From positions 245 to 64,244 of the forward strand of contig DASZOV010000138.1 of assembly GCA_035550595.1 (NCBI GenBank): DNA of 64,000 bases, in the 5' to 3' direction. Of the stretch, positions 38,263 through 64,000 are shown in pieces. This DNA is from Vicinamibacterales bacterium. GTDB taxonomy: Bacteria; Acidobacteriota; Vicinamibacteria; Vicinamibacterales; SCN-69-37. The translations under genes were made by a program, and so were the position numbers. The notes beneath the pieces are model-generated. The model had not been told where the DNA came from and ran no database searches. It worked only from the letters and a program-made list of their open reading frames with translations. How positions within the stretch are numbered: position 1 is the first letter of the stretch; every line of letters starts with the position of its first letter.

Positions 38263-39048
38263 TCAGCCGTGCGATGCCCCAGCGACGGGCTCGTCGTCGC
38301 GCAGCGCTTCGGATTCCTGTTCGGCCTCGGCGGCGAGCAGGTGTTCCTGCATGATGTGCTCGGCTTGCGCGCGATCGCGATCGCGAATGGCCTGATAGAG
38401 CTGACGATGGAGCGTCGCGGCGGTCGTGGCGTGTTCGCGGCCGTTGATGTCGCGCATGCGGAGGCGGAGCGCGAGCTCGCGCGCGAGCGACGCGCCCGAC
38501 ACCATCTCGACGAGTGAGGCGAGGATCGGGTTGCCCGACGCCACGGCCACCGCACGATGGAAGCGGATGTCGTGCCGATGGAACGCCTGCGGGTCGTCGA
38601 TCGACGCGAACATGCCGGTGACTTCATCGGAGATCGCAGCCAGGTCGTTACCCGTCGCGCGTTGGGCCGCCATGCCCGCCACGCCAATCTCGAGCGTACG
38701 GCGCGCCTCGAACATCGCGTGCCGCGTGAACCCGTGCAGGGCGGCCTGGAATCGCAGCGGCTCGCTGTCGAGCATGGGCGGACCGTCGGCCACGAACGTG
38801 CCCGCGCCATGGCGGATGATGAGCACGCCCTTGGCCGCCAGCGCGCGCAATCCCGTGCGCACGCTCGTACGGCTGACGCCGATCTCGGCCACGAGCGATC
38901 GTTCCGGCGACAGCCGCTGGCCGGGCCGGAGATCGCCCCGCAGGATCAAGTCGCTCACGTGGCGCACGACGCGCTCAGTGGCGATGCCTTCATCAGGCCT
39001 GGCGGACGGTGACGAGTTCGGCTTCTTCAACGGGCGTGGAGAGGGCAT
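38263..39048 (-). CDS. GntR-family (FadR/FCD subfamily) transcriptional regulator
   Basis: wHTH: LSPERSLVAEIGVSRTSVRTGLRALAAKGVLIIRHGAGTFV. All-helical FCD-like C-domain with His residues (…FHRHDIRFHRAV…). Confidence 0.85.
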   Translation of the reverse strand: MPSPRPLKKPNSSPSARPDEGIATERVVRHVSDLILRGDLRPGQRLSPERSLVAEIGVSRTSVRTGLRALAAKGVLIIRHGAGTFVADGPPMLDSEPLRFQAALHGFTRHAMFEARRTLEIGVAGMAAQRATGNDLAAISDEVTGMFASIDDPQAFHRHDIRFHRAVAVASGNPILASLVEMVSGASLARELALRLRMRDINGREHATTAATLHRQLYQAIRDRDRAQAEHIMQEHLLAAEAEQESEALRDDEPVAGASHG

Positions 39049-39320
39049 GAACGTGGCGACATGGCCAATCGAATATTAGACCCGAACCGCGGCGACGTCT
39101 CGGAACCGGCCAGCGCCACGCGCGCGGCGCCAACCCGACCTCGAGTGGACCGGTCGGACCTTCAAGTCGAATAGATCATACCACAGCGTGATCTTCGGAC
39201 TGACAGCCGACACGACTCGTGACTCGACGGCGTCGCCGGATAGCGAGATTGAGGCCGTTGGGTCGTGTATCGAATGCACAACCGGCGCGACGGCCAAGCG
39301 CCGGCCGATGGTGATATGAG

Positions 39321-39370
39321 TTGTCATTGGTAGAACCACAAGTATTCTAAATATACATGAGGACTGATAT
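39321..39370 (+). promoter_or_regulatory. candidate promoter (TTGTCA-N16-TATTCT) with a TGGT-N3-ACCA box (39328-39338) and an ACTGATAT half-site (39363-39370)
   Basis: This is the only AT-rich patch of the 390-bp gntR / TIM-barrel divergent region. The boxes resemble the ACTGGTAT operators at 50744 and 54914. Confidence 0.35.
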
Positions 39371-39438
39371 GATGACGGCTTCATTCGGGTGTCGACGACG
39401 CCCGACGCGACGCCCTTGCCGGCGTCAGGGAGGCCGGA

Positions 39439-40395
39439 ATGCGGTACACACGCCGTGAGGTCGGGAAGCTCGCGCTGATGGGTCTGCCAGGCGCCGCATG
39501 GTTGGCGCGCTCACCACTACTACTTGCCGCGCAGGCCGACGCCAAGCCGAACTCGCGCTGGGCGGGCGTCGACATCGGCATGAACGTCCCCTACAACTTC
39601 GATCACAGCAACCGGATGAGCGGCGACGAGGTGCTCCGTCGATGCCTGCAACTGGGCGCCAGTGTCGTCGAATTGCGGTCGCAGCCGGTCGAGGCGTTCA
39701 TGGGCGCGCCCGCGCCGGTGTCGGGCGGTGGGCGCGGGATGACGGCCGAGCAACGCACGGCCAGAGACGCGGCGGCCGCGGCGCTCGACGCCTGGCGGAA
39801 GTCGGCGCCGATGGATCGCGCGCGCGCGTTTCGCCAGCAGTACGAGGCAGCCGGCGTGCGGATCGCGATCGTCAAGTTCGACGGCATCTTCGCCATGTCG
39901 GACGACGCCGTGGACTACTGTTTTGCGCTGGCGAAGACGCTGGGCGCGCGGGCGATCTCCTGTGAGATCTCGGTGCCCGACACCAAGCGCCTCGGACAGT
40001 TCGCCGACAAGCACCGGATGATGGTCGGCTATCACGGCCACGACGATACGACGCCCGCCGATTGGGAACAGGCGTTCCGCTACGCAAAATACAATGGCGC
40101 GAACGTCGACCTCGGGCATTTCGTGAGCGGCAACGACACGTCGCCCATCCCGTTCATCACCGGGTACCACGACCGCGTCACGCACGTACACGTGAAGGAC
40201 ATGAAGATGCACCGCGGCCCAGCCGTGCCGTTCGGCGAGGGCGACGTGCCGCTGAAGGAAGCGCTTCAGCTCATTCGCGATCGGCACTGGCCGATCCCCG
40301 GCATCATCGAATTCGAATACCGCGTGCCCGCGGGCTCGACGGCCATGGAAGAGATGGCCAAGTGCATGGCGTACACGAAGGCCTGCCTGGTCTGA
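39439..40395 (+). CDS. exported xylose-isomerase-like TIM-barrel (sugar phosphate isomerase/epimerase family) protein
   Basis: GGAGG lies 5 nt upstream. Tat-like N-terminus MRYTRREVGKLALMGLPGAAWLA...AAQA. Motifs VELRSQ..., GYHGHDD, VHVKDMK and IIEFEY are typical of AP_endonuc_2 barrels. Confidence 0.8.
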   Translation: MRYTRREVGKLALMGLPGAAWLARSPLLLAAQADAKPNSRWAGVDIGMNVPYNFDHSNRMSGDEVLRRCLQLGASVVELRSQPVEAFMGAPAPVSGGGRGMTAEQRTARDAAAAALDAWRKSAPMDRARAFRQQYEAAGVRIAIVKFDGIFAMSDDAVDYCFALAKTLGARAISCEISVPDTKRLGQFADKHRMMVGYHGHDDTTPADWEQAFRYAKYNGANVDLGHFVSGNDTSPIPFITGYHDRVTHVHVKDMKMHRGPAVPFGEGDVPLKEALQLIRDRHWPIPGIIEFEYRVPAGSTAMEEMAKCMAYTKACLV

Positions 40396-40397
40396 AC

Positions 40398-40426
40398 GCG
40401 ACCGCCGGCCATCGGCCGGCGGTCGC
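40398..40426. terminator. bidirectional terminator hairpin GCGACCGCCGGCC-ATC-GGCCGGCGGTCGC
   Basis: Perfect 13-bp stem with a 3-nt loop in the 44-bp gap between convergent stops (40395 and 40440). Confidence 0.6.
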
Positions 40427-40439: not shown

Positions 40440-41855
40440 TTATTTCCGCCCCGGCGTCGATGCCGGGGCGGGGCGGGCAGCAGGATGGACGGCCAGCACC
40501 TCGGTGACGGCGTCCTCGAACACGTTCAGTGACTCACGCAGAGCCGCCATCGGGATCGTCAGCGGCGGAGAGATCTTCAAACATTCGCCGGCGATGCCGA
40601 CCGGCGCGAACATCAACAACCCCTTCTGATAGCACGCGACGTTGATCGCGAGCGCGAGCGCCGGGTTCGGCTCGTTCGTCCCGGGTTTGACCACCTGGAT
40701 GCCGGCGACGAGCCCGCGTCCGTGGAAGCAGCCGAGCACGCGGCGGTGCCGCTGCTGGATGCGGCGCAGCCGATCGCACAGGACGGTGCCGAGCCGGGCG
40801 GCGCGCGTCGCGAGCCGTTCCTTGCGGATGATCGTGAGATTGGCGATGGCCGCCGCGACGGCGAGCGGAGACGCCGAATGCGTCGAGGTCATCGACCCGG
40901 GGCGATAGAGGCTCATGATGTCGCGACGGCCGATGACGGCCGAGAGCGGCAGCGAGCTCGTGATGCCCTTGCCGCAGGCGACGAGATCGGGCGTGATGCC
41001 GTAGTGCTCGTACATGAACATCCGGCCGGTCCGTCCGAAGCCGGACTGCACTTCGTCGACGATGAGCACGATGTCGTGCCGACGGCAGAAGGCTTCGAGC
41101 GCCCGCGCGTAACTCACCGGCAGGAAGTCGGGGCCGACGCCCTGATAGGCCTCGGTCAGCACGCCCGCGATGTCGGCGGGCCGGATGCCGCGCGCGCGCA
41201 ACGCCGCGAGAAACGACGAGAACGACGTGTCGGTGTTCTTGTACCCGTCCGGGAAGGGGACCTGCACGAAGGTCCGATCGCGATCGACCATCCACGTCTT
41301 CTGCGACTCTTCGCCGCCGGCGAGCTGCGCGCCCATCGTGCGGCCGTGGAACGCGTGCACGAACGAGACGAGATACTTGCGGCGCCGGCCGTGGCGCGTG
41401 AGCGCATACGTCTTCGCCAGCTTGATGCAGTTCTCGACGGCCTCGCTGCCGGTGCTGAGGAGAAAGACCTGATAGCGCGCGGGATCGGGCGAGAGCTCGC
41501 GCAGCATGCGCGTCAGCACCGCACGGTCCTCGTGCGGAAAGACGTACGTCGCGAGGAGTGGCCGCTTCAAGTACGCCTTGAGCGCCGAGACGATTTCCGG
41601 CCGGCCGTGTCCGGCGTTCGTGATGAGCACGCCCGACGACCAGTCGATCCAGCGGTTGCCCCAGCGGTCGCTGACGGTGCACCCGCTCGCGCTGTGCCAG
41701 ACGATGGGCGGTTGGCCGGCCATCGAGCGCGGCTCGGATCGCCGAAGCTCTTCGAGGATCGGCAGCGACTCGGGGACGGGGAGCGGCGTGCGAATCCGCC
41801 GGAAGGGCGTGCGCACGCGGGGGACGGCAACGGGCGTGAGGTCGTAAGTAGCCAT
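40440..41855 (-). CDS. class-III (omega/acetylornithine-type) PLP aminotransferase
   Basis: STGSEAVENCIKLAK, DEVQSGFGRTGRMF and the PLP-lysine context ACGKGITSSLPLSAV. Starts 7 nt after the Gfo/Idh/MocA stop. Confidence 0.85.
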   Translation of the reverse strand: MATYDLTPVAVPRVRTPFRRIRTPLPVPESLPILEELRRSEPRSMAGQPPIVWHSASGCTVSDRWGNRWIDWSSGVLITNAGHGRPEIVSALKAYLKRPLLATYVFPHEDRAVLTRMLRELSPDPARYQVFLLSTGSEAVENCIKLAKTYALTRHGRRRKYLVSFVHAFHGRTMGAQLAGGEESQKTWMVDRDRTFVQVPFPDGYKNTDTSFSSFLAALRARGIRPADIAGVLTEAYQGVGPDFLPVSYARALEAFCRRHDIVLIVDEVQSGFGRTGRMFMYEHYGITPDLVACGKGITSSLPLSAVIGRRDIMSLYRPGSMTSTHSASPLAVAAAIANLTIIRKERLATRAARLGTVLCDRLRRIQQRHRRVLGCFHGRGLVAGIQVVKPGTNEPNPALALAINVACYQKGLLMFAPVGIAGECLKISPPLTIPMAALRESLNVFEDAVTEVLAVHPAARPAPASTPGRK

Positions 41856-41862: not shown

Positions 41863-43152
41863 TTACGGTCGGCGGACGGACGCGGGCTCGTCGTACACGA
41901 TCGGCACGAGGACGCCGTCGTTGACGATCGAGCGCCGCGCCGCTTCGATGACGAGTTCGTTCGTCGATGAGTTGGCCGGCGTGGCGAGCAGGCCCGCGGC
42001 GTCGATGGCTGCCAGTCGTTTGCGCCGCTCCTCGATCGCGGCTGATGACGTCAGGTCGGCGAGGCCGTGGTCGACGTGGCGGGCCGCGCGGACGTTGGCG
42101 GCAATCGAGTCGTACCCGTAGCCGATCGGCCGATAGCCGGAGCCTTCCCACGGCACGAGTTGAAAGAAATCGGGGCTGACGTACCGGTAGCGCACGCCGC
42201 CGGTCGACACCGACGCGTATCGGACGCCGCGTTGATGGTCGTCATGATCGATGAGGCCCGTGGCGTCCGCGCCCTCGCAGTACATGACGAGTCCCTGATC
42301 GTTCATGCCGGCCGCCGCGTCCGGGTAGCCGAGGCCGTCGGTCACGGTGAGCATCGCACCGTTCTCGTAGCGGACGCGTCCGCTCGACCAGAGATAGCCT
42401 TCCTGGCCATTGGGAAACGCGCGCCGCACGCCGTCGACCGAGACGCTCGTCGGACGCAGTCCCGTGATGAACGACACGAGGTCCACGTAATGGCAGCCGA
42501 CATAGGTGAACGGGTCGGTCGCCTCGCAGGTGAACCACGTCTGGAAATTCGAGTGCCGATAGTAATACGGCTCGTAGAGCCGCGCTTCGCCCATCATGAA
42601 CTCGCCGAAGCGTCCCTCGCGGTACGCGCGCCGGGCGACGAGCGCGCGCCGGTCGAAGCGCTTGTGGTACTCGACGCCGACGAAGAGACCGCGGTCGCGC
42701 GCGAGATTCGCAATCTCGATCGCCTCGGCGTGACGAAGGACGAGCGGCTTGACGCACAAGACGTGCTGCTCGTGAGTCAGCGCCTCGCGGACGACCGTAT
42801 AGTGCAACGCATCGGGCACGGCGACGATGACCATCTGCCGCGGCGCGAGTGACGCGATGACGTCGCGATACAGATCGGGATACGGCGCCTCGGGTGGCGT
42901 CGACAGCGACGGGTGCGCCTCGAAGGTCGATCCCGGGAACGCGCGCGCGAGGTCCGGATGCGACTGGAGCGCGCGAAGCGGCTCGCTCGTACGCGCGGAA
43001 ATCAGGATCCGTCCGACGCGACCCGTGCGCTGCAAGTGATAGACGGACGGCAGAATCAGATCGGCGGTGATCATGCCGCCGCCGACGATGAGGATGTCGA
43101 ACGGCGCCGCGGACGGGGCGGCGCCAATGGGCTCGCTGCTGACGTCGGTCAT
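41863..43152 (-). CDS. Gfo/Idh/MocA-family NAD(P) oxidoreductase
   Basis: Rossmann N-terminus FDILIVGGGMITADLILPS...ISARTSEP and a C-terminal alpha/beta domain. ATG 43152 overlaps the TGA of the upstream TIM-barrel gene (ATGA). No signal peptide. Confidence 0.8.
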   Translation of the reverse strand: MTDVSSEPIGAAPSAAPFDILIVGGGMITADLILPSVYHLQRTGRVGRILISARTSEPLRALQSHPDLARAFPGSTFEAHPSLSTPPEAPYPDLYRDVIASLAPRQMVIVAVPDALHYTVVREALTHEQHVLCVKPLVLRHAEAIEIANLARDRGLFVGVEYHKRFDRRALVARRAYREGRFGEFMMGEARLYEPYYYRHSNFQTWFTCEATDPFTYVGCHYVDLVSFITGLRPTSVSVDGVRRAFPNGQEGYLWSSGRVRYENGAMLTVTDGLGYPDAAAGMNDQGLVMYCEGADATGLIDHDDHQRGVRYASVSTGGVRYRYVSPDFFQLVPWEGSGYRPIGYGYDSIAANVRAARHVDHGLADLTSSAAIEERRKRLAAIDAAGLLATPANSSTNELVIEAARRSIVNDGVLVPIVYDEPASVRRP

Positions 43153-44033
43153 GCGTGACGACTCATGTAGTCGAGAAAGCGGCGCGCGCACGCCGTCAGC
43201 CGGTCCCGTGAGCCGCCGCCGACGAGGGGCGAGCACATCTCGTAGGACACCCAGCCGTTGAATCCGCCTTCGCGGAGCGCGCCGAAAAACGCGTCGTAGG
43301 GAAGATCGCCGTCGCCCATGGGCACGGCCCGAACGGACGGCGGTTCGCGCGGCACGTAGTTGACCGCCGCCGGCACGTACTGCCAGCGCGGCAGCACGAT
43401 GTAGTCGGCTGCCGTCGTCATGGCCATGCGCGGCGCCAGCGCACGCGCGTGGGCGACGACGTCCTCGCCGCGAAGCGTCGGGGACCAGCAGTCGTACATC
43501 AACGCGAGGTTCGTCCGATCGACCTCGTCGGCGAATTGCACGTACGCGCGCGTGTCGACCGCGAGGTCGTGATGATTCTGCAGCCCGATGCGAACGCCGA
43601 ACGGCGCGGCACGATCACAGCAGGCGCGGATGGCATCGAGCGTACGCTGCCACAGCGTCGTGACGTTCGATGCGGTGTGCTCGAATGACGTGAAGACGCG
43701 GACGAGATCGGAGCCGAGGGCGGCCGCGCGCGCCGCCAGATCGGCGACGTAGGCGACCTGCACGTCAACGAGGGGAACTTCCGCGTCGGGCGCCAGCCCG
43801 AAGTCGGTGTACGCGGCCACGGCAGCGACGCCGAGACCGCGCGTCTCGAGACGGTCACGCAACCGGCGACAGTCGTCGACACTGTAGTCGAGTGGCGACA
43901 GGTGCGGACGCTTGCCCATGATCTCGACGCCGTCGTAGCCAAGAGCGGCAGCGAGATCGATGGACTCGTCGAGCGTCAGCCGGTCCTGACCCCAGAAGCC
44001 GGCGAACGAGACGGTGAAGAGGGCGGTGTGCAT
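43149..44033 (-). CDS. cytoplasmic xylose-isomerase-like TIM-barrel protein
   Basis: MHTALFTVSFAGFWGQDRLTLDESIDLAAALGYDGVEIMGKRPH..., ...IGLQNHHDLA..., ...WVSYEM. Start at internal ATG 44033, because the upstream ORF extension is Arg-rich. Confidence 0.8.
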   Translation of the reverse strand: MHTALFTVSFAGFWGQDRLTLDESIDLAAALGYDGVEIMGKRPHLSPLDYSVDDCRRLRDRLETRGLGVAAVAAYTDFGLAPDAEVPLVDVQVAYVADLAARAAALGSDLVRVFTSFEHTASNVTTLWQRTLDAIRACCDRAAPFGVRIGLQNHHDLAVDTRAYVQFADEVDRTNLALMYDCWSPTLRGEDVVAHARALAPRMAMTTAADYIVLPRWQYVPAAVNYVPREPPSVRAVPMGDGDLPYDAFFGALREGGFNGWVSYEMCSPLVGGGSRDRLTACARRFLDYMSRHA

Positions 44034-44061
44034 TGCGGTACCTGAGCGGCGACCCGCTGGT

Positions 44062-44102
44062 CGTACGGCCGGGCCCCGCCACGCGGGAAACCCGGCCGTA
44101 CG
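44062..44102 (-). promoter_or_regulatory. intercistronic stem-loop (12-bp outer stem CGTACGGCCGGG/CCCGGCCGTACG plus an inner 5-bp stem)
   Basis: Lies in the 109-nt gap between the TBDR-1 stop and the TIM-barrel start. Possible attenuator or RNA-processing/stability element. Confidence 0.4.
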
Positions 44103-44142
44103 GCCGAACGGTGAGAGGACGCGGTTCGATCGCGCCCGTGCC

Positions 44143-47100: not shown

Positions 47101-47829
47101 CTGGTTCGTGCCGCTCTTGGTGATGGCGGCGACCTGCAGGCCGCTCGACCGGCCGTACTCCGCCTGATAGTTGGAGGTCAGCACCTTCACTTCGGCGATC
47201 GACTCGACGTTCACTTTCATGACCAGCCGGTTGCTGCCGGTGTCCATCGTCGAGACGCCGTCCATCGTGTAGTTGTTGTCACCACCGCCGGTCGACGCGG
47301 TGTCGCCGACGCGGTTCGTGCCGCTGACGCCGGGCGTGAGCGAGATGAGCGCGTCGAAACTGCGCGTCGCAATGGGCAGGTTCTGCACGGCATCGGTCGG
47401 CACGGTCATCGACCGCTCGCCGCTGGTCGTCTGGACGGCCAGCGCCTCGCCAGTGACGTCGACGACCTCCGATACGCCACCGACGTCGAGCGTGAGCCGG
47501 CCGACCGACGTGCGCGATCCGGCGTTGACCGTGATGCCTGACCGGTTCAACGTCTTGAAGCCCGACATCACGACCTCGATCGTGTACGTGTCGGCTGGCG
47601 TATTCGGCACAACGAAGTCGCCGGTTTCGTTCGTGACGACGACCGGAGACTTCGTGCCCTTCGTGGCGCTCACGAGCGTCACTGAGGCGCCGGGCAGGGC
47701 TCCGCCCTGCGCGTCCGTGATCGTGCCGACGACCGAACCGGTCGTGATCTGCGCACTGGCTGACACCGCCATCGTCGTCATGCCGACGAGTACGGCCGCC
47801 AGGGCAGCTATTCCACGCGTCCACCTCAT
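44143..47829 (-). CDS. TonB-dependent receptor with an N-terminal CarboxypepD_reg domain (TBDR-1)
   Basis: Signal peptide ...AVSASAQ. CarboxypepD_reg segment GTITDAQGGALPGASVTLV...TGDFVVPNTPADTYTIEV. Plug and long beta-barrel. C-terminal AQIRFSF. Confidence 0.9.
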   Translation of the reverse strand: MRWTRGIAALAAVLVGMTTMAVSASAQITTGSVVGTITDAQGGALPGASVTLVSATKGTKSPVVVTNETGDFVVPNTPADTYTIEVVMSGFKTLNRSGITVNAGSRTSVGRLTLDVGGVSEVVDVTGEALAVQTTSGERSMTVPTDAVQNLPIATRSFDALISLTPGVSGTNRVGDTASTGGGDNNYTMDGVSTMDTGSNRLVMKVNVESIAEVKVLTSNYQAEYGRSSGLQVAAITKSGTNQFHGSLYDVERNSDWNANSERNILNGDPKGVSKQRDWGYSIGGPIGKPGGNNKLFFFYTQEFNPRTTGGNTQRWRMPTVLERQGDFSQTYDNLGNLYPYIRDASKSGACSASDQSACFADGGVLGRIPADRLYQTGLNILNHWPAPNIDGTGLAYNYVTQSATQKLTGWQPVVKLDYQPWSALRASFKYAAYGQADRTILGSIPGFNDTRQQNPVVFTDAATVDYTVNPTTFLEVVYGHSQAEEAGCALVGGSPQFCQNALQMNPTSDRNNIGLGDLPYIFPDATVINPDYYAYRVLNKVNPPIWDGSRLLLPPSFSWGNRVTNNPPNLGFPGYLNTIRTDDIAVNLTKVAGRHTLKAGFYNTHSYKAEQPNNNALGSINFSNDTNNPLDAQFGFANAALGTFDSYQQAPAYIEGNWVYNNTEWFVQDNWKFTDRLTLDYGLRFVHQQPQYDELGQTSNFLLDKWQPSAAPALYQAGCANNSYPCSGSARQALDPVTGALLGPNTALAIGTIVPNSGDEANGLFVAGQGIAKTTYTWPAVAVGPRFGMAYDVTGTQRLVLRGGGGLFFDRPSGNSVFPQASNPPFSGTVTVQYGQLQSLGSGGLTTKTPPALNIFQYDSPLPSSAQWNAGAQMALPWSTTLDVSYVGQHGYNIVTGVNINAVDFGTAYLDQYQDPTLTPSTTPGATAVTTNLMRPYQGYGSISSNQSFGWRTYHSLQISFQRRFVHGLSFGFNDTIGLYDHSSVGLRLEHNPDGTYTTRADQGDAQDLLGDNHPQTHILKANFVWQLPTLQADRSALRVLSYIINDWQLSGIWTASTGSYYTVGYSYQSNGGNVNITGSPDYAGRVRLVGDPGAGCSDDIYRQFNASAFAGPLPGSVGLESGNGYAQGCASSVLDFAIARTIRLGGGRSAQFRLDIFNAPNSAQITGRNTTVTLANPNTSTTAVNLPYDADGNLVSSRSKPSNAGFGMANAWQDPRTIQAQIRFSF

Positions 47830-51064: not shown

Positions 51065-51106
51065 GCCGCGGGAAGGGACACCGGCCGGCGTCCCGGGCCC
51101 CGCGGC
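51065..51106 (-). terminator. compound GC stem-loop after TBDR-2 (outer GCCGCGGG/CCCGCGGC, inner GGGAC/GTCCC)
   Basis: Lies 12 nt downstream of the TBDR-2 stop on the coding strand. Confidence 0.4.
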
Positions 51107-51117
51107 CGGAGAGATCG

Positions 51118-54913: not shown

Positions 54914-54972
54914 ACTGGTATGACATATCATACCAATCGGCGAACTATAGTGGATCGCGACTGGGCCGTCAA
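54914..54972 (-). promoter_or_regulatory. promoter P2 (TTGACG-N17-TATAGT) with operator ACTGGTAT-N8-ATACCAAT 6 nt downstream of the -10
   Basis: On the + strand: operator at 54914-54937, ACTATA at 54944-54949, CGTCAA at 54967-54972. Homologous to P1 over ~130 bp. Confidence 0.6.
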
Positions 54973-55151
54973 GCGCGGAGGTTGTCGCAGGTTGTCGCGC
55001 CTGATGTTGAAAATAGACGGTAATTTGCGCTGAATACTGCTCGATGACGCGCCACGGTTCCTTGCCTGACAGGGGCGGAGCAGCGGACCAAAATATTCAG
55101 TGGTGTGCCAATACTTTAATTTGCTTTGAAAGAGGATGAACCTTGTGGCGT

Positions 55152-58200: not shown

Positions 58201-58903
58201 CCGCCACCTGCAGGCCGCTCGACCGGCCGTATTCCGCTTGGTAGTTGGACGTCAGCACTTTCACTTCGGCGATCGACTCGACGTTCACCTTCATCACGAG
58301 TCGATTGCTGCCGGTGTCCATCGTCGAGACGCCGTCCATCATGAAGTTGTTGTCGCTGCCGCCGGTCGACGCCGTGTCGCCGACGCGGTTCGTGCCGCTG
58401 ACGCCGGGCGTGAGCGAGATGAGCGCGTCGAAGCTCCGTGAGGCGATGGGCAGATTCTCGACGGCCTCGGTCGTGACCGTCATCGATCGCTCACCGCTCG
58501 TCGTCTGGATGGTCGGGACTTCGCTCGTCACGTTCACGACTTCGGTCGCGCCGCCGACCTCGAGCGTCAGCGTGCCGAGCGCCACGCGCGAGCCGGCGTC
58601 CACCTGGACGCCCGTGTGCTTGAGCGTCTTGAAGGCGGACATCTCGACCTGCACGGTGTAGGTGTCAGGGGCGACGTTCGGAAACACGAAGTCGCCCGTG
58701 CCGTTGGTGACGACGGGTGTCGAGGTGGTGCCCTTGGTTTCACTGGTCAAGGTGATCGTCGCACCCGGGATCACACCTCCCGTGGTGTCTTTGACGGTGC
58801 CGCTGAGCGTGCTCGTCGCGACCTGTCCCCAGGCGGGACTCGACCACGCAGCGAGCACGAGGGAAAGGCCGACGACGACTGTCTTGAGCCTGACTCGTTC
58901 CAT
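55202..58903 (-). CDS. TonB-dependent receptor with an N-terminal CarboxypepD_reg domain (TBDR-3)
   Basis: GGAGG lies 8 nt upstream. Signal ...AAWSSPAWGQ. The barrel is nearly identical to TBDR-1. C-terminal AQIRLSF. Confidence 0.9.
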   Translation of the reverse strand: MERVRLKTVVVGLSLVLAAWSSPAWGQVATSTLSGTVKDTTGGVIPGATITLTSETKGTTSTPVVTNGTGDFVFPNVAPDTYTVQVEMSAFKTLKHTGVQVDAGSRVALGTLTLEVGGATEVVNVTSEVPTIQTTSGERSMTVTTEAVENLPIASRSFDALISLTPGVSGTNRVGDTASTGGSDNNFMMDGVSTMDTGSNRLVMKVNVESIAEVKVLTSNYQAEYGRSSGLQVAAITKSGSNHFHGSLYDVERNSDWNANSERNILNGDPKGVSKQRDWGYSIGGPVGKPGGTNKLFFYYTQEFNPRTTGGNTQRWRMPTVLERQGDFSQTYDNLGNLYPYIRDASKPGACSASDQSACFADGGVLGRIPADRLYQTGLNILNMWPTPNIDGTGLAYNYVTQSATQKLTGWQPVVKLDYQPWSALRASFKYAAYGQADRTILGSIPGFNDTQQQNPVVYTDAATIDYTISPTMFLEGTYGHSFAEEAGCALVGGSPQFCQSALQMNPTSNRNNIGLGGLPYIFPDATVIDPDYYAYRVLNKVNPPIWDGSRLLLPPSFSWGNRITTSSSPYAPPNLGFPGYLNTISTHDLAVNLTKIAGRHTIKVGFYNQHSYKAQQANNNALGSINFSNDTNNPIDAQYGFANAALGIFDSYQQAPAYIEGNWVYNNAEWFAQDNWKLTDRLTLDYGLRFVHQQPQYDELGQTSNFLVDKWQPSAAPALYLPGCANDSYPCSGSARQALNPVTGELLGPNTALAIGTIVPNSGDEANGLFVAGQGIAKTTYTWPAVAVGPRFGLAYDVTGTQRLVVRGGGGLFFDRPSGNSVFAQAANPPFSGAVTVQYGQLQSLGSGGLTTTAAPSLNVFQYDSPLPSSAQWNAGAQMALPWSTTLDVSYVGQHGYNIVTGVNINAVDFGTAYLDQYQDPTLKPSTTPGATAVTTNLMRPYQGYGSISSNQAIGWRTYHSIQLSFQRRFVHGLSFGFNDTIGLYDHSNVGLRLEHNPDGTYTTRADQGEAQDLLGDNHPQTHILKANFVWQLPTLQTDRSGLRVLSYIINDWQLSGIWTASTAGYYTVGYSYQSNGGNVNLTGSPDYGARVRLVGDPGAGCSDDIYRQFDVAAFAGPLPGSVGLESGNGYLQGCASSVLDLAIARTIRLGGGRSAQFRLDIFNAPNSAEITGRNTSMTLANPTASTTPVNLPYDADGNLVSSRSKPSNAGFGMANGWQDPRTIQAQIRLSF

Positions 58904-59069: not shown

Positions 59070-59120
59070 ACTGATAATACCAGTTCGTCGGCATTGTACA
59101 TAAAGTCGACCATCGTGCAA
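59070..59120 (-). promoter_or_regulatory. promoter P3 (TTGCAC-N16-TACAAT) with compact inverted repeat ACTGATA-N1-TACCAGT 8 nt downstream of the -10
   Basis: On the + strand: IR at 59070-59084 (ATACCAGT core at 59077-59084), ATTGTA at 59093-59098, GTGCAA at 59115-59120. Confidence 0.5.
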
Positions 59121-59355: not shown

Positions 59356-62300
59356 TCAGAACGAGAAGCGAATCTGTGCCTGCACCGTGCGCGGCGACTG
59401 ATAATTGTTCGCCACGCCGAAGCCCGCGCCGCGCGGCCGCGACCGCGAGTCGACGAGGTTGCCGGACGCGTCGAACGGCAGGTTCTGCGCCGTCACCGGA
59501 TCGGAGGGGCTCGACAGATTGAGCGTCGTGTTGCGGCCCGTGATGCCCGCCTGATTCGGCGCGTTGAAGAGGTCGACGCGCAACTGCACGGCGCGACCGC
59601 CGCCGATCTCGATGTTGCGCGCGATCGACAGATCGAGCACGCTCGAGAAGCAGCCCCGCAGGTAGTTGTTGCTCGACTCGAGGCCGACGCTGCCCGGCAG
59701 CGGCCCCTGGAACGCCGCCGTGTTGAACTGCCGGTACACGTCGTCGCTGCAGCCGTCGCCCGGATCGCCGACGATGCGCACGCGCGCGCCGTAGTCGGGC
59801 GAGCCGGTGATGTTCACGTTCGAGCCGCCGTTCTGGTAGCTGTAGCCGACCGAGTACGCGCCGCCGGTCGCCGCCGTCCAGATGCCGGACAACTGCCAGT
59901 CGCTCACGATGAGGCCGACGGTCCGCGCGAGCGTCCCCTCACCCTGGTAGTCGGGCAGATCCCACACGAAGTTCGCCTTCATGATGTGCGTCTGCGGGTT
60001 GTTGTTGCCGAGCAGATCTTCAGCCTCCTTCTGATCCGCGCGGACGACGTACGATCCGTCCGGCCGATGATCGAGCCGCGGCGCGAGATTCTGGTGATCG
60101 TAAATACCGATCGTGTCGTTGAAGCCGAACGACAGCCCGTGCGTGAACCGGCGCTGGAAGGAGAACTGGACCGAGTGATAGGTGCGCCACATCCAGCTCG
60201 CCGTCTGGTTGATCGACGAGTAGCCGCGGATGGCGCGCATTTGATCGCCCGTGAGGGCTGACGCGCCGGCCGTCGAGCTCGGCGCGAGCGTCGGATCCTG
60301 GTACTCGGGCAGGAATGCGCTGCCGAAGTCGACCGCGTTGAGGTTCACGCCCTGCAGGATGTTGTAGCCGTGCTGGCCGACGTAGGAGATGTCGAGCGTC
60401 GTGTTCCACGGCAGCGCCATCTGCGCGCCGGCGTTCCACTGCACCGACGACGGGATGTCGCTGTCGTACTCGAAGACGGCGAGCGTCGGCGCCACGGCGG
60501 TCGCCAGGCCGGCCGATCCGAGGTTCTGCAATTGACCGTTGTGGACCGTGGCGTTTTCGAGCGTGGGCGGATTGGTGACCTGCGCGAACACCGAGTTGCC
60601 GCTCGGCCGATCGAAGAAGAGCCCGGCGCCGCCGCGCAGCACCAAGCGCTGCGATCCGGTCACGTCGTACGCCATGCCGAAGCGCGGCCCGACGACGAGC
60701 GCCGGCCACTTGTAGGCCGTCTTCGCGATGCCTTGGCCGGCCACGAAGAGCCCGTCGGTCATGTCGCCGGAGCCGGGCACGATCGTGCCGATGGCGAGCG
60801 TCGTTCCGGGACCGAGCAACTCGCCGGTCAGCGGGTTCTGTGCTTGCCGGTTCGTGCCCGAGCACGGCATGACGCCGTTCGCGCACGCCGCCACGTACAG
60901 CACGGGCGCCGAGTCGACCGAGTACTTCTCCGGCAGGAAGTTCGCGGCCTGCGACTCGGTGTCGTATTGCGGCGACTGGTGGACGAAGCGCAGGCCGTAG
61001 TCGAGCGTGAGCTGACTCGTCACCTTCCAGTTGTCCTGGATGTAGGCTTCGGTGTTCGTATAGACGTAGTGGCCTTCGACGAACTGCGAGGCCTGCGAGT
61101 ACGAGCTGAAGATGCCGAGCGCGGCGTTGGCGAAGCCGAAGCCCGAGTCGATCGGGTTGTTGGCGTCGTTGCCGAAGTTCAGCGTGCCGAACGGATTGCC
61201 CTGGTTCTGCTCCTTCGTCCCGTGCTGGTTGTAGAAGCCGGCCTTGATCGTGTGCCGGCCGGCGACCTTCGTCACGCTTCCGGCGATGTCATTGATCGAG
61301 TCGCGATCGGCGAAGCCCGGGTACACGAGGTTCGGCGGATCGTTGCCGATGCGGCTGCCCCACTGGAACGCCGGCGGCAGCAGCACGCGCGTGCCGTCGA
61401 AGATCGGCGGTGACACCTGCTGCAGCGCCTCGAGCTGATATGAGCCGGACGGGACGATGACGGCGTCCGGGAAGAGATAGGGGATGCCGTCGAGACCGGA
61501 GTTGAAGCGGTTCGCGACTGGATTCATGGGGAAGCCGGCCGCGCAGAAGTTGACGCCGGCGCCGTTCAAGCCGCAGCCGGCCTGGCTGTGGCCGGTGTGA
61601 CCGCCGGTCACCTCGAGGAACGTCGTGTCGTTGAGGTTGTAGTTGGCCGAGATCGCGAGCAGCGGCACGCTCGGGTGGTTCATCTGCGTGTCGTTGAAGC
61701 CCGGTAGCGATCCGAGGATCGTCCGGCGCGGCTGTCCCCATCCCGCGTACTTGACCGTGGCGCGGAACGTCGTCCACGGCTGATAGTCGACGCGCACGAC
61801 CGGCTGCCACGAGGTGAGGCTCTGTGTCGGCCGCGTGAGCTGGTAGTTGTAGGCGCCCTGTCCGGTGACGTTCGGGAGCGGATAGAGATTCAAGATGTTG
61901 AGGCCGGTGTCATACAGGCGGTCGGCCGGAATCCGTCCGAGGACGCCGCCGTCGGCGAAACACGCCGACTGGTTCGACGCGCTGCACGAGCCCGAGAGCC
62001 GCGAATCGCGGATGTACGGGAACGGATTGTTGTTGTTGTCGGTCGTCTGGGAGAAGTCGCCCTGCCGCTCGAGCGCGCTCGGCACACGGAACGACACGAC
62101 GTTGTTGCCGGTCGTGCGCGGCTGGAACTCCTGCGCGTAGAAGAAGAACAGTTTGTTCCTGCCGCCCGGCTTGCCGATCGGGCCGCCGATCGAATAGCCC
62201 CAGTCGCGCTCCTTGGTCGTCGTCTTCGGATCGCCGTTGAGGATGTTCACCTGGCTGTTCGCGTTCCAGTCCGAGTTGCGCTCGACGTCGTAGAGCGAGC

Positions 62301-63036
62301 CGTGGAACTGGTTCGATCCGCTCTTGGTGATGGCCGTGACCTGCAGGCCGCTCGACCGGCCGTACTCGGCCTGGTAGTTGGACGTCAGGACTTTCACCTC
62401 GGCAATCGATTCGACGTTGACGTTCACCATCAGGCGGTTGCTGCCGGGCTCGACCGTCGAGACGCCGTCCATCATGAAGTTGTTCGAGCCGCCGCCGGTC
62501 GACGAGGAGTCGCCGACGCGGTTGCCGCCGTTGACGCCCGGCGTCAGGTCGACGAGCGAGGCGAAACTGCGATTCGCGATTGGGAGATTCGCGACCGACT
62601 GCGTCGTGACCGTGAACGAGCGCTCGCCGGTCGTCGCCTGGATGATGGGCGCCTCGTCGGTGACCGTGACCGTTTCGGTCGCGCCGCCCACCTCGAGCAC
62701 GAGCGTGCCGAGACTCGTGCGCGTCGCGGCGCTCACGTCGACGCCCGGTCGCCGGAGCGTCTTGAAGGACGGCATCTCGATGACCAGCGTGTAGGTGTCG
62801 GCGGCCATGTTGACGAAGACGAAGTCGCCCGTGGCATTCGTCGTCACCGGCGCCGACGGCGTGCCGCGCGTCTCGCTGACGAGTGTGGCGGTCGCGCCGG
62901 GCAAGACGCCGCCTTGCGTGTCCTTGACGGTGCCCGAGACCGTGCCCGTGCTGACCTGGGCCAGCGCGGGCGTCGCCGCGAGGAGTGCTGCGGCGACCAT
63001 CCACGACGTCGTCCCTCTGAGTAGTGCTCGTACCAT
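59356..63036 (-). CDS. TonB-dependent receptor with an N-terminal CarboxypepD_reg domain (TBDR-4)
   Basis: GGAGG lies 8 nt upstream. Signal ...AATPALAQ. Same architecture. C-terminal AQIRFSF. Most divergent of the four. Confidence 0.9.
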   Translation of the reverse strand: MVRALLRGTTSWMVAAALLAATPALAQVSTGTVSGTVKDTQGGVLPGATATLVSETRGTPSAPVTTNATGDFVFVNMAADTYTLVIEMPSFKTLRRPGVDVSAATRTSLGTLVLEVGGATETVTVTDEAPIIQATTGERSFTVTTQSVANLPIANRSFASLVDLTPGVNGGNRVGDSSSTGGGSNNFMMDGVSTVEPGSNRLMVNVNVESIAEVKVLTSNYQAEYGRSSGLQVTAITKSGSNQFHGSLYDVERNSDWNANSQVNILNGDPKTTTKERDWGYSIGGPIGKPGGRNKLFFFYAQEFQPRTTGNNVVSFRVPSALERQGDFSQTTDNNNNPFPYIRDSRLSGSCSASNQSACFADGGVLGRIPADRLYDTGLNILNLYPLPNVTGQGAYNYQLTRPTQSLTSWQPVVRVDYQPWTTFRATVKYAGWGQPRRTILGSLPGFNDTQMNHPSVPLLAISANYNLNDTTFLEVTGGHTGHSQAGCGLNGAGVNFCAAGFPMNPVANRFNSGLDGIPYLFPDAVIVPSGSYQLEALQQVSPPIFDGTRVLLPPAFQWGSRIGNDPPNLVYPGFADRDSINDIAGSVTKVAGRHTIKAGFYNQHGTKEQNQGNPFGTLNFGNDANNPIDSGFGFANAALGIFSSYSQASQFVEGHYVYTNTEAYIQDNWKVTSQLTLDYGLRFVHQSPQYDTESQAANFLPEKYSVDSAPVLYVAACANGVMPCSGTNRQAQNPLTGELLGPGTTLAIGTIVPGSGDMTDGLFVAGQGIAKTAYKWPALVVGPRFGMAYDVTGSQRLVLRGGAGLFFDRPSGNSVFAQVTNPPTLENATVHNGQLQNLGSAGLATAVAPTLAVFEYDSDIPSSVQWNAGAQMALPWNTTLDISYVGQHGYNILQGVNLNAVDFGSAFLPEYQDPTLAPSSTAGASALTGDQMRAIRGYSSINQTASWMWRTYHSVQFSFQRRFTHGLSFGFNDTIGIYDHQNLAPRLDHRPDGSYVVRADQKEAEDLLGNNNPQTHIMKANFVWDLPDYQGEGTLARTVGLIVSDWQLSGIWTAATGGAYSVGYSYQNGGSNVNITGSPDYGARVRIVGDPGDGCSDDVYRQFNTAAFQGPLPGSVGLESSNNYLRGCFSSVLDLSIARNIEIGGGRAVQLRVDLFNAPNQAGITGRNTTLNLSSPSDPVTAQNLPFDASGNLVDSRSRPRGAGFGVANNYQSPRTVQAQIRFSF

Positions 63037-63262
63037 GATGTCGTCCTCCGGTAGTGGTGGCCGTGACCGATGCGCTGGTCACGGCCGTATGGCGTCATCC
63101 GTGGTCGTTGGCGTCCGCAGGGGATGAGTCGCGCGAGCGGCTCCTCCCCCGCGGCCTCGTCGTCGAGACACGCCGGTAGAGCGGGACGGTGGCAGGACCG
63201 TTCCAGCGACCGAGAGGTCTCTGAAGAGGACCGCACTGCGTTCGCGAGTGCGTAGAGTGATG

Positions 63263-63307
63263 ATACCAGTTGGTCGGTGATTATACACAGAGCCAGTACA
63301 CAATCAA
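63263..63307 (-). promoter_or_regulatory. promoter P4 (TTGATT-N16-TATAAT) with an ATACCAGT core 9 nt downstream of the -10
   Basis: On the + strand: ATACCAGT at 63263-63270 (followed by TGGTCGG), ATTATA at 63280-63285, AATCAA at 63302-63307. Confidence 0.55.
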
Positions 63308-63470
63308 GCCGAATCTGCGCGCAGGGACCGGGGAGCGAGCTGGCGATATTTTGGCGAGTTACCTGGACTGATCGTCTGCTACAATGCGCGCTCCATCGGT
63401 GGCTGGGAGAGTGGGACGTCGCGGCGGATGCCTTGCGGGATTTCGCCGTATGAACCATGAGGTATGACTA

Positions 63471-64000
63471 GTGAGATCTCAGGCGATCGTTGATGTCATA
63501 AGACGGGGTCTCATCGGAGTCGCGCTGCTCGTCGCGTTGCTCCTGACCGCGCCGCACGTCGCGGCGCAGCCGGCACGCGGGATCCAGGTGGGCTATTGCG
63601 GCTCGCTGAAGGACGTCGACGCGGCCAAGGCCGCCGGCTTCGACTACATCGAGCTCGGCACGACGGAAATCGCCGGGCTCTCCGACGAGGCCTTCGACGA
63701 GGCGGCCCGCCGTGTCGCCCAGTCCGGTCTGCCCGTGCCGGTGACGAACCTGTTCTTACCCGGCAACCTCAAGGTGACCGGCCCGGCCGTCGATCCGGCC
63801 GCCCAGCTCGCCTACATGAAGAAGGTGTTTCCGCGCCTGCAGCAGCTCGGCGTGCACATCCTCGTGTTCGGCAGCGGCGGATCGCGGCGCGTGCCCGATG
63901 GCTTCCCGAAAGATCAGGCGTTCGCCCAGCTCGTCGACTTCGGCCGGCGCGCGGCCACGCTGGCGCGGACGTTCGACATCACGATCGCGCTCGAGCCGTT
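63471..64000 (+). CDS. exported xylose-isomerase-like TIM-barrel protein, N-terminal 176 codons (3' end outside the window)
   Basis: GTG start, signal RRGLIGVALLVALLLTAPHVAAQP, then IQVGYCGSLKDVDAAKAAGFDYIELG...HILVFGSGGSRRVP...ITIALEP. Not in the ORF track because it runs off the window. Confidence 0.7.
   Translation, partial: MRSQAIVDVIRRGLIGVALLVALLLTAPHVAAQPARGIQVGYCGSLKDVDAAKAAGFDYIELGTTEIAGLSDEAFDEAARRVAQSGLPVPVTNLFLPGNLKVTGPAVDPAAQLAYMKKVFPRLQQLGVHILVFGSGGSRRVPDGFPKDQAFAQLVDFGRRAATLARTFDITIALEP

Follow-up and report, generated by a model that had tools for sequence, protein, structure and literature searches.

A candidate GntR-regulated, TonB-dependent sugar-utilisation locus of a Vicinamibacterales bacterium and the pan-bacterial oxidoreductase-aminotransferase gene pair within it

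This report concerns positions 38.2 to 64 kb of a 64,000-nt stretch of contig DASZOV010000138.1 from a Vicinamibacterales bacterium (the whole stretch is called the window; its G+C content is ~67%), in which a gene for a GntR-type regulator lies beside genes for four TonB-dependent receptors, an exported DUF7133-HEAT-cytochrome c protein (termed the putative dehydrogenase below), three TIM-barrel proteins, a Gfo/Idh/MocA oxidoreductase (Gfo) and a class-III aminotransferase. The region is a TonB-dependent sugar-utilisation locus that falls outside every characterised cluster against which it was tested, in agreement with an earlier sequence-only reading of the same DNA that had not recognised it as a described system. 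What is new in it is the pair formed by Gfo and the aminotransferase, which is pan-bacterial, and the operonic link of that pair to the DUF7133-cytochrome c family. We give roughly an even chance to the explanation that these genes make up a GntR/FCD-repressed locus for the acquisition and catabolism of a carbohydrate-derived, probably nitrogen-bearing substrate (an amino sugar or an amino-aldonate).

Gfo and the class-III aminotransferase constitute a conserved two-gene module across many phyla. Gfo has 4395 homologues at 56-69% identity (74% mean column identity) and, in a scan of one genome per species, was encoded in at least 587 species from more than 10 phyla, including Verrucomicrobiota, Lentisphaerota, Kiritimatiellota, Planctomycetota, Acidobacteriota, Bacteroidota, Hydrogenedentota, Spirochaetota, Elusimicrobiota, Nitrospirota and others. 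Identities for the pair as a whole were 56-77%, with the aminotransferase at 64-77% across phyla. The surroundings of the pair were compared in 139 loci (80 from genomes and 59 from metagenomes), and among the informative ones, defined as having at least 1.6 kb on both sides, the two genes lay side by side on the same strand in 51 of 63 loci from genomes and 19 of 24 from metagenomes (~80%). Since adjacency and co-orientation persist in both of the gene orders that occur, selection on the pairing itself is implied. The module combines a Gfo with motifs of the GGGMIT...EYHKRFD...YVGCHYVD type and a class-III aminotransferase of the QGVGPDF type, and the window genes, which are 7 bp apart, belong to these types. 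Literature searches by keyword found no paper on a pair of this kind, although a description may be missed by keywords alone.

The genes that recur beside the pair in other bacteria point to contexts of sugar, sugar-acid and amino-sugar catabolism. These included the following: a glutamate dehydrogenase gene directly upstream in 15 loci, where it is well placed for 2-oxoglutarate regeneration; a NagA-like deacetylase in 13 loci (TIGR00221, E 3e-51); LacI regulators in 8 + 5 loci; a PfkB or 2-keto-3-deoxygluconate (KDG) kinase in nine loci; a 2-keto-3-deoxy-6-phosphogluconate (KDPG) aldolase in six; and, further, FGGY kinases and, in Bacteroidota, an ADP-ribosylglycohydrolase-like protein. One of these contigs, L089, has the order mutarotase, Gfo, aminotransferase, NagA-like protein, UxaE, KDG kinase and epimerase, followed by a nickel-dependent hexonate epimerase, a mannonate oxidoreductase and a 6-phosphogluconate dehydrogenase. 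The LacI, glutamate dehydrogenase, NagA-like, KDG kinase and KDPG aldolase neighbours together indicate catabolism of amino sugars or amino-sugar acids, and the earlier suggestion of an amino-sugar substrate fits these contexts. The NagA-like proteins form a truncated family of ~305-325 aa that comprises the catalytic barrel only (TIGR00221 positions 55-347), has no Pfam match and follows the pair in phyla of the Planctomycetota-Verrucomicrobiota-Chlamydiota (PVC) group (L026 12636-13589, L089 10663-11577 and 11 more loci).

Neither enzyme of the pair could be placed in a characterised subfamily. Gfo matched GFO_IDH_MocA (E 2e-11) and GFO_IDH_MocA_C3 (E 7e-9) in Pfam, and it was rejected as IolG (TIGR04380, 40.8 bits versus a cut-off of 355), as the levoglucosan dehydrogenase LgdA (NF052479, 24.4 bits versus 650) and as a BT_2158 glycoside 3-dehydrogenase or AL3-type enzyme (NF058561, 18.5 bits versus 750). 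Its N-terminus, MTDVSSEPIGAAPSAAPFDILIVGGG, has no signal, so that export by the twin-arginine translocation (TAT) system, by which AL3-type enzymes are defined, is not expected for it. The TIM-barrel proteins of the locus were likewise rejected as IolE (TIGR04379, 21-28 bits versus 290), and with scores so far under the cut-offs the analogy to IolG/IolE, LgdA/LgdB and DgpA drawn from the letters was abandoned. A Foldseek search with the AlphaFold model of Gfo did not separate the members of the Gfo superfamily, all of which scored alike (~E 1e-10, TM ~0.45-0.5), and this ranking was not used for assigning chemistry. The Joint Genome Institute (JGI) label "D-galacturonate reductase", carried by many Gfo homologues, has an untraceable basis and was treated as unverified.

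The aminotransferase is a class-III enzyme by its Aminotran_3 score (273.1 bits versus a cut-off of 30.5), and the lysine in its CGKGI motif aligns with the pyridoxal 5'-phosphate (PLP) lysine of homologues in the PDB. Its best family and PDB matches are 4-aminobutyrate (GABA) transaminases (E 1e-60 to 1e-79), but it was rejected as GabT or PuuE (TIGR00700, 265.8 bits versus 506.65; other GabT models, 210-266 versus 639-747). When its active-site positions were compared with PDB 9wrf, two were found to be changed invariantly in 55 aligned members: the gating-glutamate position, where QG-VGPDF has a one-residue deletion/Val, and the alpha-carboxylate arginine position, where EC.KIxPPL has Lys for Arg. 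We take these to be E211 and R398 in GabT numbering. The HGRT motif, whose arginine binds the substrate carboxylate in GabT and ornithine aminotransferase, is kept.

In the window, the gene set between 38 and 64 kb was established from codon-position G+C together with Pfam and NCBIfam scans. The longest open reading frames were too long for three genes, and the real starts were set from signal peptides, from an ATGA overlap and from gene calls in a 99%-identical contig of a metagenome-assembled genome (MAG). The ATGA overlap, read from the sequence, joins the true ATG of the Gfo gene at 43152 to the stop of the adjoining TIM-barrel gene. Every gene family in the earlier inventory was borne out by Pfam or NCBIfam, with slight corrections to coordinates, as follows.

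38263-39048, minus strand: gntR, a FadR-subfamily GntR + FCD regulator (Pfam)
39439-40395, plus strand: exported TIM barrel 1, AP_endonuc_2 (Pfam, E 4.8e-10), with a TAT-like signal, MRYTRREVGK...
40440-41855, minus strand: class-III PLP aminotransferase, GABA-transaminase-like (Pfam Aminotran_3, E 4.3e-81)
41863-43152, minus strand: Gfo/Idh/MocA oxidoreductase, cytoplasmic, divergent, 429 aa (Pfam)
43149-44036, minus strand: cytoplasmic xylose-isomerase-like TIM barrel, 295 aa, no signal peptide (AP_endonuc_2, E 2.7e-32)
44143-47829, minus strand: TonB-dependent receptor 1 (OMP_b-brl_4, E 1e-133, and CarboxypepD_reg)
47918-50680, minus strand: exported DUF7133 + HEAT_2 + cytochrome c protein, a PVC-type CxxCH protein (Pfam/NCBIfam)
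51118-54783, minus strand: TonB-dependent receptor 2, CarboxypepD_reg + OMP_b-brl_4 (Pfam)
55202-58903, minus strand: TonB-dependent receptor 3, CarboxypepD_reg + OMP_b-brl_4 (Pfam), with a weak Plug match too
59356-63036, minus strand: TonB-dependent receptor 4, CarboxypepD_reg + OMP_b-brl_4 (Pfam)
63471-64000, plus strand: exported TIM barrel 2, xylose-isomerase-like, cut by the window end (AP_endonuc_2, E 3.8e-14)

These genes fully cover the coding space from 38.2 to 64 kb. None of the encoded proteins has more than one hydrophobic segment, and no polytopic membrane protein, SusD, TonB/ExbBD or recognised glycoside hydrolase was found there in the Pfam and NCBIfam scans. The earlier statement that the region lacks a transporter and a glycoside hydrolase thus holds for 38.2-64 kb and needs three caveats, namely the major facilitator superfamily (MFS) gene of relatives, a report of beta-galactosidase activity for a DUF7133 protein and a GH138-like neighbour; the view that it is not a classical polysaccharide utilisation locus stands, there being no SusD domain in any of these genes. 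The neighbour in question (35471-38140, plus strand) is a TAT-exported protein of ~890 aa, convergent with gntR and without a Pfam domain, whose only matches are weak ones to GH138 alpha-galacturonidases (NF049878, E 2.6e-8; PDB 6hze, E 0.05), and it is possibly a distant glycosidase just outside the locus coordinates. An Rfam scan of 38-64 kb at E <= 0.1 gave nothing, which leaves the long receptor leaders without a known riboswitch.

The operonic link between the pair and the putative dehydrogenase came from relatives of the window. The contigs of the nearest Gfo relatives (67-69% identity, 65-67% G+C) carry other families of the locus, with orthologue identities of 55-75%. In L096 (5980-18727) nine genes with overlapping or abutting ends are tightly packed in the order DUF7133 dehydrogenase, GT9-like gene, Gfo, aminotransferase, MFS sugar transporter, second Gfo, TIM barrel, lactonase and a 581-aa unknown, and upstream of this run are another dehydrogenase and an orthologue of exported TIM barrel 1. 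L094 has a dehydrogenase, a GT9-like gene, (a TAT-TIM barrel), Gfo, the aminotransferase and an MFS gene; the last of these lies directly 3' of the aminotransferase gene in both contigs and has no counterpart in the window. Since L096 and L094 hold the dehydrogenase and the Gfo-aminotransferase pair in one packed operon, the two are likely to be linked functionally. In L091 and L092, dehydrogenase orthologues (63-72%) are divergent from neighbouring cytoplasmic TIM-barrel orthologues (64-70%) and also lie beside exported TIM-1 orthologues (57%), cytochrome c and pyrroloquinoline quinone (PQQ)-repeat proteins; across L091, L092 and L096 the exported TIM-1 orthologues that adjoin DUF7133 dehydrogenases are 55-57% identical. 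One close dehydrogenase homologue is labelled Vicinamibacterales. As judged from gene content, the dehydrogenase, the TIM barrels and the pair are recurrent companions in the closest high-GC, Vicinamibacterales-like lineage, in shuffled arrangements, and their co-occurrence in the window is accordingly seen again in L091, L092, L094 and L096. The heptosyltransferase-family (GT9) gene is an odd member of the catabolic-looking L096 operon, and it recurs in L092 and L094.

Gene order, in contrast to gene content, was not conserved. The order dehydrogenase, receptor, TIM barrel, Gfo, aminotransferase, which the sequence-only reading had expected to be conserved, is kept only in near-identical genomes (the ~99% identical contig L086), and elsewhere only Gfo and the aminotransferase stay together among the 80 + 59 loci. 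Searches of all 139 loci with tblastn and phmmer found essentially none of the window's TIM barrels, receptors or dehydrogenase near the pair, the exception being L066, where the cytoplasmic TIM barrel had one match at 38%. A GntR homologue was near the pair in L047 only (55%), with weak matches in L060 and L107. The ATGA coupling of Gfo to the TIM barrel is present in the window as was claimed, but it is local, relatives coupling Gfo to the GT9-like gene instead.

The protein encoded at 47918-50680 scored 207.8 bits with TIGR02604 (cut-off 122.2) and 343 bits with DUF7133 (cut-off 27); it has a hydrophobic N-terminus, a cytochrome domain (Cytochrome_CBB3, E 2.8e-10) and a single CxxCH motif (CQACH at residue 810), which makes it mono-haem. 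Single-sequence and profile searches of the PDB with the DUF7133 domain matched the cytochrome c and HEAT parts only. In its AlphaFold model (pLDDT 70, with the propeller mostly at 70-94), the best Foldseek matches of the N-terminal propeller were 8re0, 5min, 1cru and 3a9g (E 1e-5 to 2e-4, TM 0.47-0.58), which are soluble PQQ glucose dehydrogenase and the PQQ sugar dehydrogenase 3a9g, and a resemblance of the DUF7133 propeller to soluble PQQ sugar dehydrogenases is therefore predicted. The COG-based name given by JGI, glucose/arabinose dehydrogenase + cytochrome c, is in line with this. The same three-domain architecture has been assayed once: Lac161_ORF7 was reported to liberate glucose from lactose (Km 1.8 mM) and was proposed to represent a new beta-galactosidase family (PMC5342196), and TIGR02604 proteins have been listed as putative beta-propeller glycosidases (PMC7397252). 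A dehydrogenase rather than a glycosidase is nevertheless the favoured reading of the model, because the cytochrome is fused to the propeller. Also behind this reading, besides the PQQ matches and the C-terminal position of the cytochrome c, are the lactonase of L096, which would fit oxidation at C1 to a lactone, and a paralogue with a discoidin domain. The latter (23207-26491, plus strand, 33% identical) is a DUF7133-HEAT-cytochrome c protein with a C-terminal F5/8-type-C (discoidin, galactose-binding-like) domain, and it is followed by an OmpA-family protein at 26364-27965. Membership of the DUF7133 family in CAZy GH165 was unconfirmed and is not claimed; a 2019 paper puts the family outside CAZy.

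That two of the TIM-barrel proteins are exported and one is cytoplasmic was confirmed by their AP_endonuc_2 matches and N-termini, that of exported TIM barrel 2 being the signal-like VRSQAIVDVIRRGLIGVALLVALLLTAPHVAAQ. The three have no BLAST-detectable relation to one another. The cytoplasmic protein has weak PDB matches only, to AsbF, tagatose 3-epimerase and IolI, and those of the exported proteins are weak also and are to structures of unknown or unrelated function. A homologue of the cytoplasmic protein (57%) in the Planctomycetota contig L093 (8301-10888) overlaps the end of a PMT-family (protein O-mannosyltransferase-like) gene, and because of that neighbour the subfamily would not seem to be bound to one context.

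The four receptors are true paralogues, with 60-87% amino-acid identity, and together with their Pfam matches this upholds the earlier description of them as four CarboxypepD_reg-type relatives. Receptor 1 is a mosaic, its residues 1-200 being ~90% identical to receptor 2 and the remainder 88-96% identical to receptor 3, which indicates that the array probably arose by recent duplication and gene conversion. Receptors 2-4 each have their own promoter and terminator, and receptor 1 is not preceded by a copy of the motif described below.

The candidate repressor of the locus is the GntR/FCD protein, which is of the FadR subfamily by its GntR domain (63.3 bits versus a cut-off of 27) and FCD domain (81.6 bits versus 24.3). 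Its best NCBIfam matches were LldR, NanR, GlcC and PdhR, all of which were rejected with scores far under the cut-offs. The sequence ATACCAGT occurs in five exact copies versus 0.18 expected, a number reached in 0 of 100 shuffles, and all copies are intergenic, 5' of the dehydrogenase gene and of receptors 2, 3 and 4. In four sigma-70-like promoters the motif sits at a fixed spacing past the -10 box, and alignment of the four upstream regions gave the common layout -35 / ~17 nt / -10 / 7-9 nt / ACTGGTAT, with -35 boxes TTGACG, CTTGCA or TTGATT and -10 boxes TATAGT, TACAAT or TATAAT. The shared promoter-proximal core noted earlier is thus real at five copies in four promoters, although two copies lie in duplicated DNA: the DNA preceding the dehydrogenase gene and that preceding receptor 2 are duplicates, and for that reason their motif copies are not independent. 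The sites are as follows.

50744-50805, minus strand: dehydrogenase promoter and operator, with -35 TTGACG at 50800-50805, -10 TATAGT at 50777-50782 and the operator, a perfect 24-bp palindrome ACTGGTAT-N8-ATACCAGT, at 50744-50767
54914-54937, minus strand: receptor 2 operator palindrome ACTGGTAT-N8-ATACCAaT, past the -10 box
59070-59084, minus strand: receptor 3 short operator form ACTGGTATTATCAGT, 8 nt past -10 TACAAT, kept in L165
63256-63270, minus strand: receptor 4 short operator form ACTGGTATCATCACT, 9 nt past -10 TATAAT
39363-39370, plus strand: degenerate operator-like half-site ACTGATAT, one mismatch to the core, in the divergent intergenic region of gntR and TIM barrel 1

At receptors 3 and 4 the operator is a shorter, imperfect palindrome. 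ACTGATAT directly follows a predicted promoter (TTGTCA-16-TATTCT, 39321-39348), and we infer that it may be an operator half-site. The candidate operator ACTGGTAT-N8-ATACCAGT overlies the predicted region of transcription start, which is the classical position for a repressor, and contains CTGGT/ACCAG half-sites that presumably resemble FadR-type sites. The dehydrogenase palindrome is kept in L086, where the gene order of the locus is also kept. In L165-L167, where orthologues are 94-99% identical (94% for the dehydrogenase), the order is receptor 4, receptor 3, GntR/FCD, dehydrogenase, receptor 1; the GntR/FCD gene of L165 (5868-6614; also in L166 and L167) is 67% identical to the window's regulator and occupies, between receptor 3 and the dehydrogenase, the place of receptor 2 in the window. 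The ACTGGTAT core is kept past the -10 box of two promoters in L165, with the left half of the palindrome retained. A regulator gene within the receptor and dehydrogenase array, together with the preserved core, supports the link between GntR and the locus that had been proposed from proximity. The operator was not found in the more distant relatives L047 and L091-L096, and from this comparison it appears confined to the close lineage of the window. Another shared element, TGGTGTACCAAT / TGGTGTGCCAAT, with TGGT..ACCA half-sites, was seen at 50936-50950 and 55104-55118, just past the receptor 2 and 3 terminators and before the next promoter, and the similar TCTGGTACACCAC is present in L165.

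Two strong RNA folds bear on how the genes could be transcribed.

40398-40426: 13-bp perfect inverted repeat with a 3-nt loop, between the convergent TIM barrel 1 and aminotransferase genes
44045-44142, minus strand: structured spacer from the receptor 1 stop to the cytoplasmic TIM-barrel start

The first (-34.8 kcal/mol, z -6.1, 0/200 shuffles, no T-tract) is exactly the hairpin that had been said to close the unit, and it is a probable bidirectional terminator. The second (-63.5 kcal/mol, z -3.79, 0/200 shuffles) takes up almost all of a 106-bp spacer in which no promoter or operator was recognisable, and is possibly a terminator or attenuator that breaks the proposed operon. Since a strong hairpin follows receptor 1 and no promoter or operator is found there, the single operon proposed to run from the dehydrogenase promoter to the aminotransferase (50803-40440) is doubtful and would need read-through. 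The spacer past the dehydrogenase gene folds weakly (z -1.3), while the terminators of receptor 2 (51000-51117, -76.2 kcal/mol, z -4.3), receptor 3 (z -5.5) and receptor 4 (z -6.4) are strong. The hairpins past each gene in the window are GC-rich and without T-tracts, and they may be RNA stabilisers, not full terminators.

How a GntR/FCD-repressed locus for a nitrogen-bearing, carbohydrate-derived substrate might operate can be outlined as follows. The substrate would enter through the TonB-dependent receptors and be oxidised in the periplasm by the propeller-cytochrome c enzyme, maybe at C1, yielding first a lactone and later an aldonate, and the respiratory chain would take up the electrons. 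Further processing of the oxidised substrate would fall to both exported TIM-barrel enzymes, and import across the inner membrane would depend on a transporter encoded outside the window, such as the MFS protein of relatives. In the cytoplasm, the TIM barrel and the Gfo-aminotransferase pair would interconvert hydroxyl, carbonyl and amine groups on a sugar or sugar-acid skeleton, the amino group going to 2-oxoglutarate and the carbon to keto-deoxy-aldonate or Entner-Doudoroff-type routes, and a GntR ligand, presumably a pathway intermediate, would lift repression. The nitrogen-containing sugar is proposed because the pair is conserved with glutamate dehydrogenase, NagA-like, LacI, KDG kinase and KDPG aldolase genes and because HGRT is kept. 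We speculate, well short of an even chance, that the pair is an unrecognised, very widespread route by which amino sugars or amino-aldonates lose or gain their amino group, fed in Vicinamibacterales-like bacteria by the DUF7133-cytochrome c protein, exported TIM barrels and receptors. A more specific scheme, in which the amino sugar becomes an amino-aldonate that the aminotransferase deaminates to a 2-keto-aldonate and Gfo reduces or otherwise converts, is the one we prefer among such detailed schemes, with still less weight attached to it.

A number of observations weigh against this explanation of the locus. No enzyme of the locus scores above any equivalog cut-off, and NagA-like, glutamate dehydrogenase and KDG-kinase genes are absent from it. 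The hairpin parts receptor 1 from the cytoplasmic TIM-Gfo-aminotransferase genes, in front of which no operator or promoter was seen that would place them under GntR. The receptors were seen only in the window, L086 and L165. The only assay on the DUF7133 architecture reportedly gave lactose hydrolysis and not dehydrogenation (PMC5342196). The models are of limited quality, moderate for the dehydrogenase (pLDDT 70) and poor for Gfo, whose model from a 25-sequence alignment has a pLDDT of 64.5 and a C-terminal substrate domain below 50. Lastly, the pair often stands alone among unrelated genes: in Terracidiphilus-type Acidobacteriota (L002-L004, 10001-12608) it lies between mreC/mreD/PBP2/rodA and mreB with no sugar-catabolic neighbours, and a lone pair would fit a housekeeping or biosynthetic role equally well.

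Four other explanations were weighed against this evidence. It may be that independent units have been juxtaposed, with a GntR regulon made up of the receptors and the DUF7133 protein, perhaps with the exported TIM barrels, and with the cytoplasmic TIM-Gfo-aminotransferase genes as a separate unit; the strong hairpin behind receptor 1, the lack of a ACTGGTAT motif before the cytoplasmic TIM gene, the shuffling of gene order among relatives and the fact that the pair is unlinked to receptors, TIM barrels and dehydrogenases in the 80 genome and 59 metagenome loci all argue in this direction. We hold it to be rather unlikely, given that the dehydrogenase and the pair share one packed operon in L096 and L094, that orthologues of the cytoplasmic TIM barrel and the dehydrogenase adjoin in L091 and L092, that the 106-bp spacer has no recognisable promoter and that hairpins of the same GC-rich kind without T-tracts, maybe RNA stabilisers, lie behind every gene. 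Non-hydrolytic or unusual glycoside cleavage in a nitrogen-free glycan would make the DUF7133 protein either beta-galactosidase-like or a 3-keto-type oxidative cleaver, the latter working alongside exported TIM barrels that would serve as its eliminase and hydratase, and would leave the aminotransferase a side role. Lac161_ORF7, which has the same three domains and hydrolysed lactose (PMC5342196), the glycosidase listing of TIGR02604 (PMC7397252) and the weakly GH138-like exported protein next door all speak for it; we judge it unlikely, since the aminotransferase is everywhere Gfo's most strongly coupled partner, Gfo has no signal peptide and 18.5 bits versus 750 for the BT_2158 family, the locus has no DUF1080 protein and the exported TIM barrels resemble solved structures only weakly.

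The pair might also be biosynthetic, converting a hydroxyl through a ketone to an amine in an amino sugar, aminocyclitol or amino-polyol for the envelope or as a solute. GenD2 and KanD2 were among the top Foldseek matches of the Gfo model, but ranks obtained with so poor a model do not discriminate; the Terracidiphilus copy among cell-shape genes (mreC, mreD, PBP2, rodA, mreB), without catabolic neighbours, and the 56-77% identity across phyla would suit such a housekeeping function. Biosynthetic sugar dehydrogenase/aminotransferase pairs, however, use DegT/DnrJ/EryC1-type aminotransferases, whereas the partner here is class III (Aminotran_3 only), and catabolic neighbours (LacI, glutamate dehydrogenase, NagA-like, KDG kinase and aldolase, MFS) are frequent, so that we regard a biosynthetic pair as very unlikely. 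The least probable explanation in our estimation, and a very improbable one, is that the substrate of the pair is not a sugar but a small omega-amino acid or amine (GABA, beta-alanine or an aldehyde derived from polyamines), with Gfo as semialdehyde reductase or dehydrogenase. The 4-aminobutyrate transaminase matches (E 1e-60 to 1e-79) and the retained HGRT favour it; the score below all GabT equivalog cut-offs (265.8 versus 506.65 bits for TIGR00700), the invariant changes at the equivalents of GabT E211 and R398 and the sugar-related neighbours of the pair do not. Moreover, the known substrates of Gfo/Idh/MocA enzymes are, almost without exception, sugars, cyclitols and related polyols.

Elsewhere in the window, a Pat-like fusion of a GNAT acetyltransferase and an ADP-forming acyl-CoA synthetase is encoded at 8441-11113 (plus strand) and an NYN-nuclease/OST-HTH (LOTUS) protein at 2015-3454 (plus strand). 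MacB-type permeases and DUF3738 are also present, and these were counted with the receptor type as acidobacterial hallmarks.

Soils and sediments are rich in Acidobacteriota and PVC bacteria, which have very large, unexplained expansions of the DUF7133-cytochrome c, xylose-isomerase-like TIM-barrel and Gfo/Idh/MocA families. The locus ties one member of each of these families to a regulator, an operator, outer-membrane importers and a pan-bacterial aminotransferase pair, and offers a tractable entry point to them. If the pair does serve amino-group exchange on amino sugars or amino-aldonates, it would combine transamination to 2-oxoglutarate with a redox step, independently of the NagB/GlmS isomerase-deaminases and the OngC/DgaE ammonia-lyases, and the large, uncharacterised DUF7133/TIGR02604 family would gain its first physiological role. 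A deamination module of this sort would supply a missing part of the picture of how many uncultured degraders of polysaccharides regain carbon and nitrogen from the amino sugars of sources such as chitin, peptidoglycan, glycosaminoglycans and microbial necromass, and would correct the uninformative annotation of thousands of genes.

Among known systems, the SusC/SusD loci of Bacteroidota resemble the locus in their clustered TonB-dependent receptors, periplasmic enzymes and local regulator, and differ in that the locus has no SusD, recognised CAZyme or inner-membrane transporter and that its receptors are of the acidobacterial CarboxypepD_reg + OMP_b-brl_4 type. The AL1-AL4 / BT2156-2160, DgpA/DgpBC and LgdA/LgdB systems share with it a Gfo/Idh/MocA enzyme accompanied by proteins annotated as sugar-phosphate isomerases (the JGI annotation of the cytoplasmic-TIM family too), divided between periplasm and cytosol (bioRxiv 10.1101/2024.03.25.586180). 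Unlike in these 3-keto clusters, Gfo here is cytoplasmic and outside BT_2158, LgdA and IolG, there is no DUF1080 protein, the aminotransferase is the obligatory partner, and periplasmic oxidation would be the task of a cytochrome c-linked propeller instead of a Gfo enzyme exported by TAT. In domain architecture (TIGR02604 + HEAT_2 + cytochrome c) the putative dehydrogenase is likened to Lac161_ORF7 (AGW45552, encoded on a Chthoniobacter-like cosmid from soil; Cheng et al. 2017, PMC5342196), which was reported as a lactose-hydrolysing beta-galactosidase in a study that assayed hydrolysis only, whereas the window protein models as a PQQ-sugar-dehydrogenase-like propeller.

The pair itself recalls GenD2/GenS2, KanD2/KanS2, NtdC/NtdA, GnnA/GnnB and WbpB/WbpE, in which a Gfo dehydrogenase and a PLP aminotransferase turn a hydroxyl into an amine via a ketone. 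GenD2/GenS2-type aminotransferases act on nucleotide-sugars, sugar phosphates or pseudo-oligosaccharides; in contrast, the window has a class-III partner resembling GABA transaminase, and the surroundings of the pair are catabolic. As described, the ong cluster of Pseudoalteromonas prydzensis for oxidative chitin (GlcNAc1A) utilisation (Jiang et al. 2022, PMC9537276; OngB, PMC12017989) is the described system closest in logic to the scheme proposed here, through its import of an oxidised amino sugar, periplasmic processing, cytoplasmic deacetylation, removal of the amino group, entry to KDG/KDPG and dedicated regulator, and the accessory genes of the pair elsewhere (NagA-like deacetylase, KDG kinase and KDPG aldolase) mirror that scheme. 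The two differ in that oxidation in the ong system is extracellular, by a lytic polysaccharide monooxygenase, whereas here it would be periplasmic, by a cytochrome c-linked propeller, and in that the OngC deaminase frees NH3, whereas the locus has a class-III aminotransferase with Gfo.

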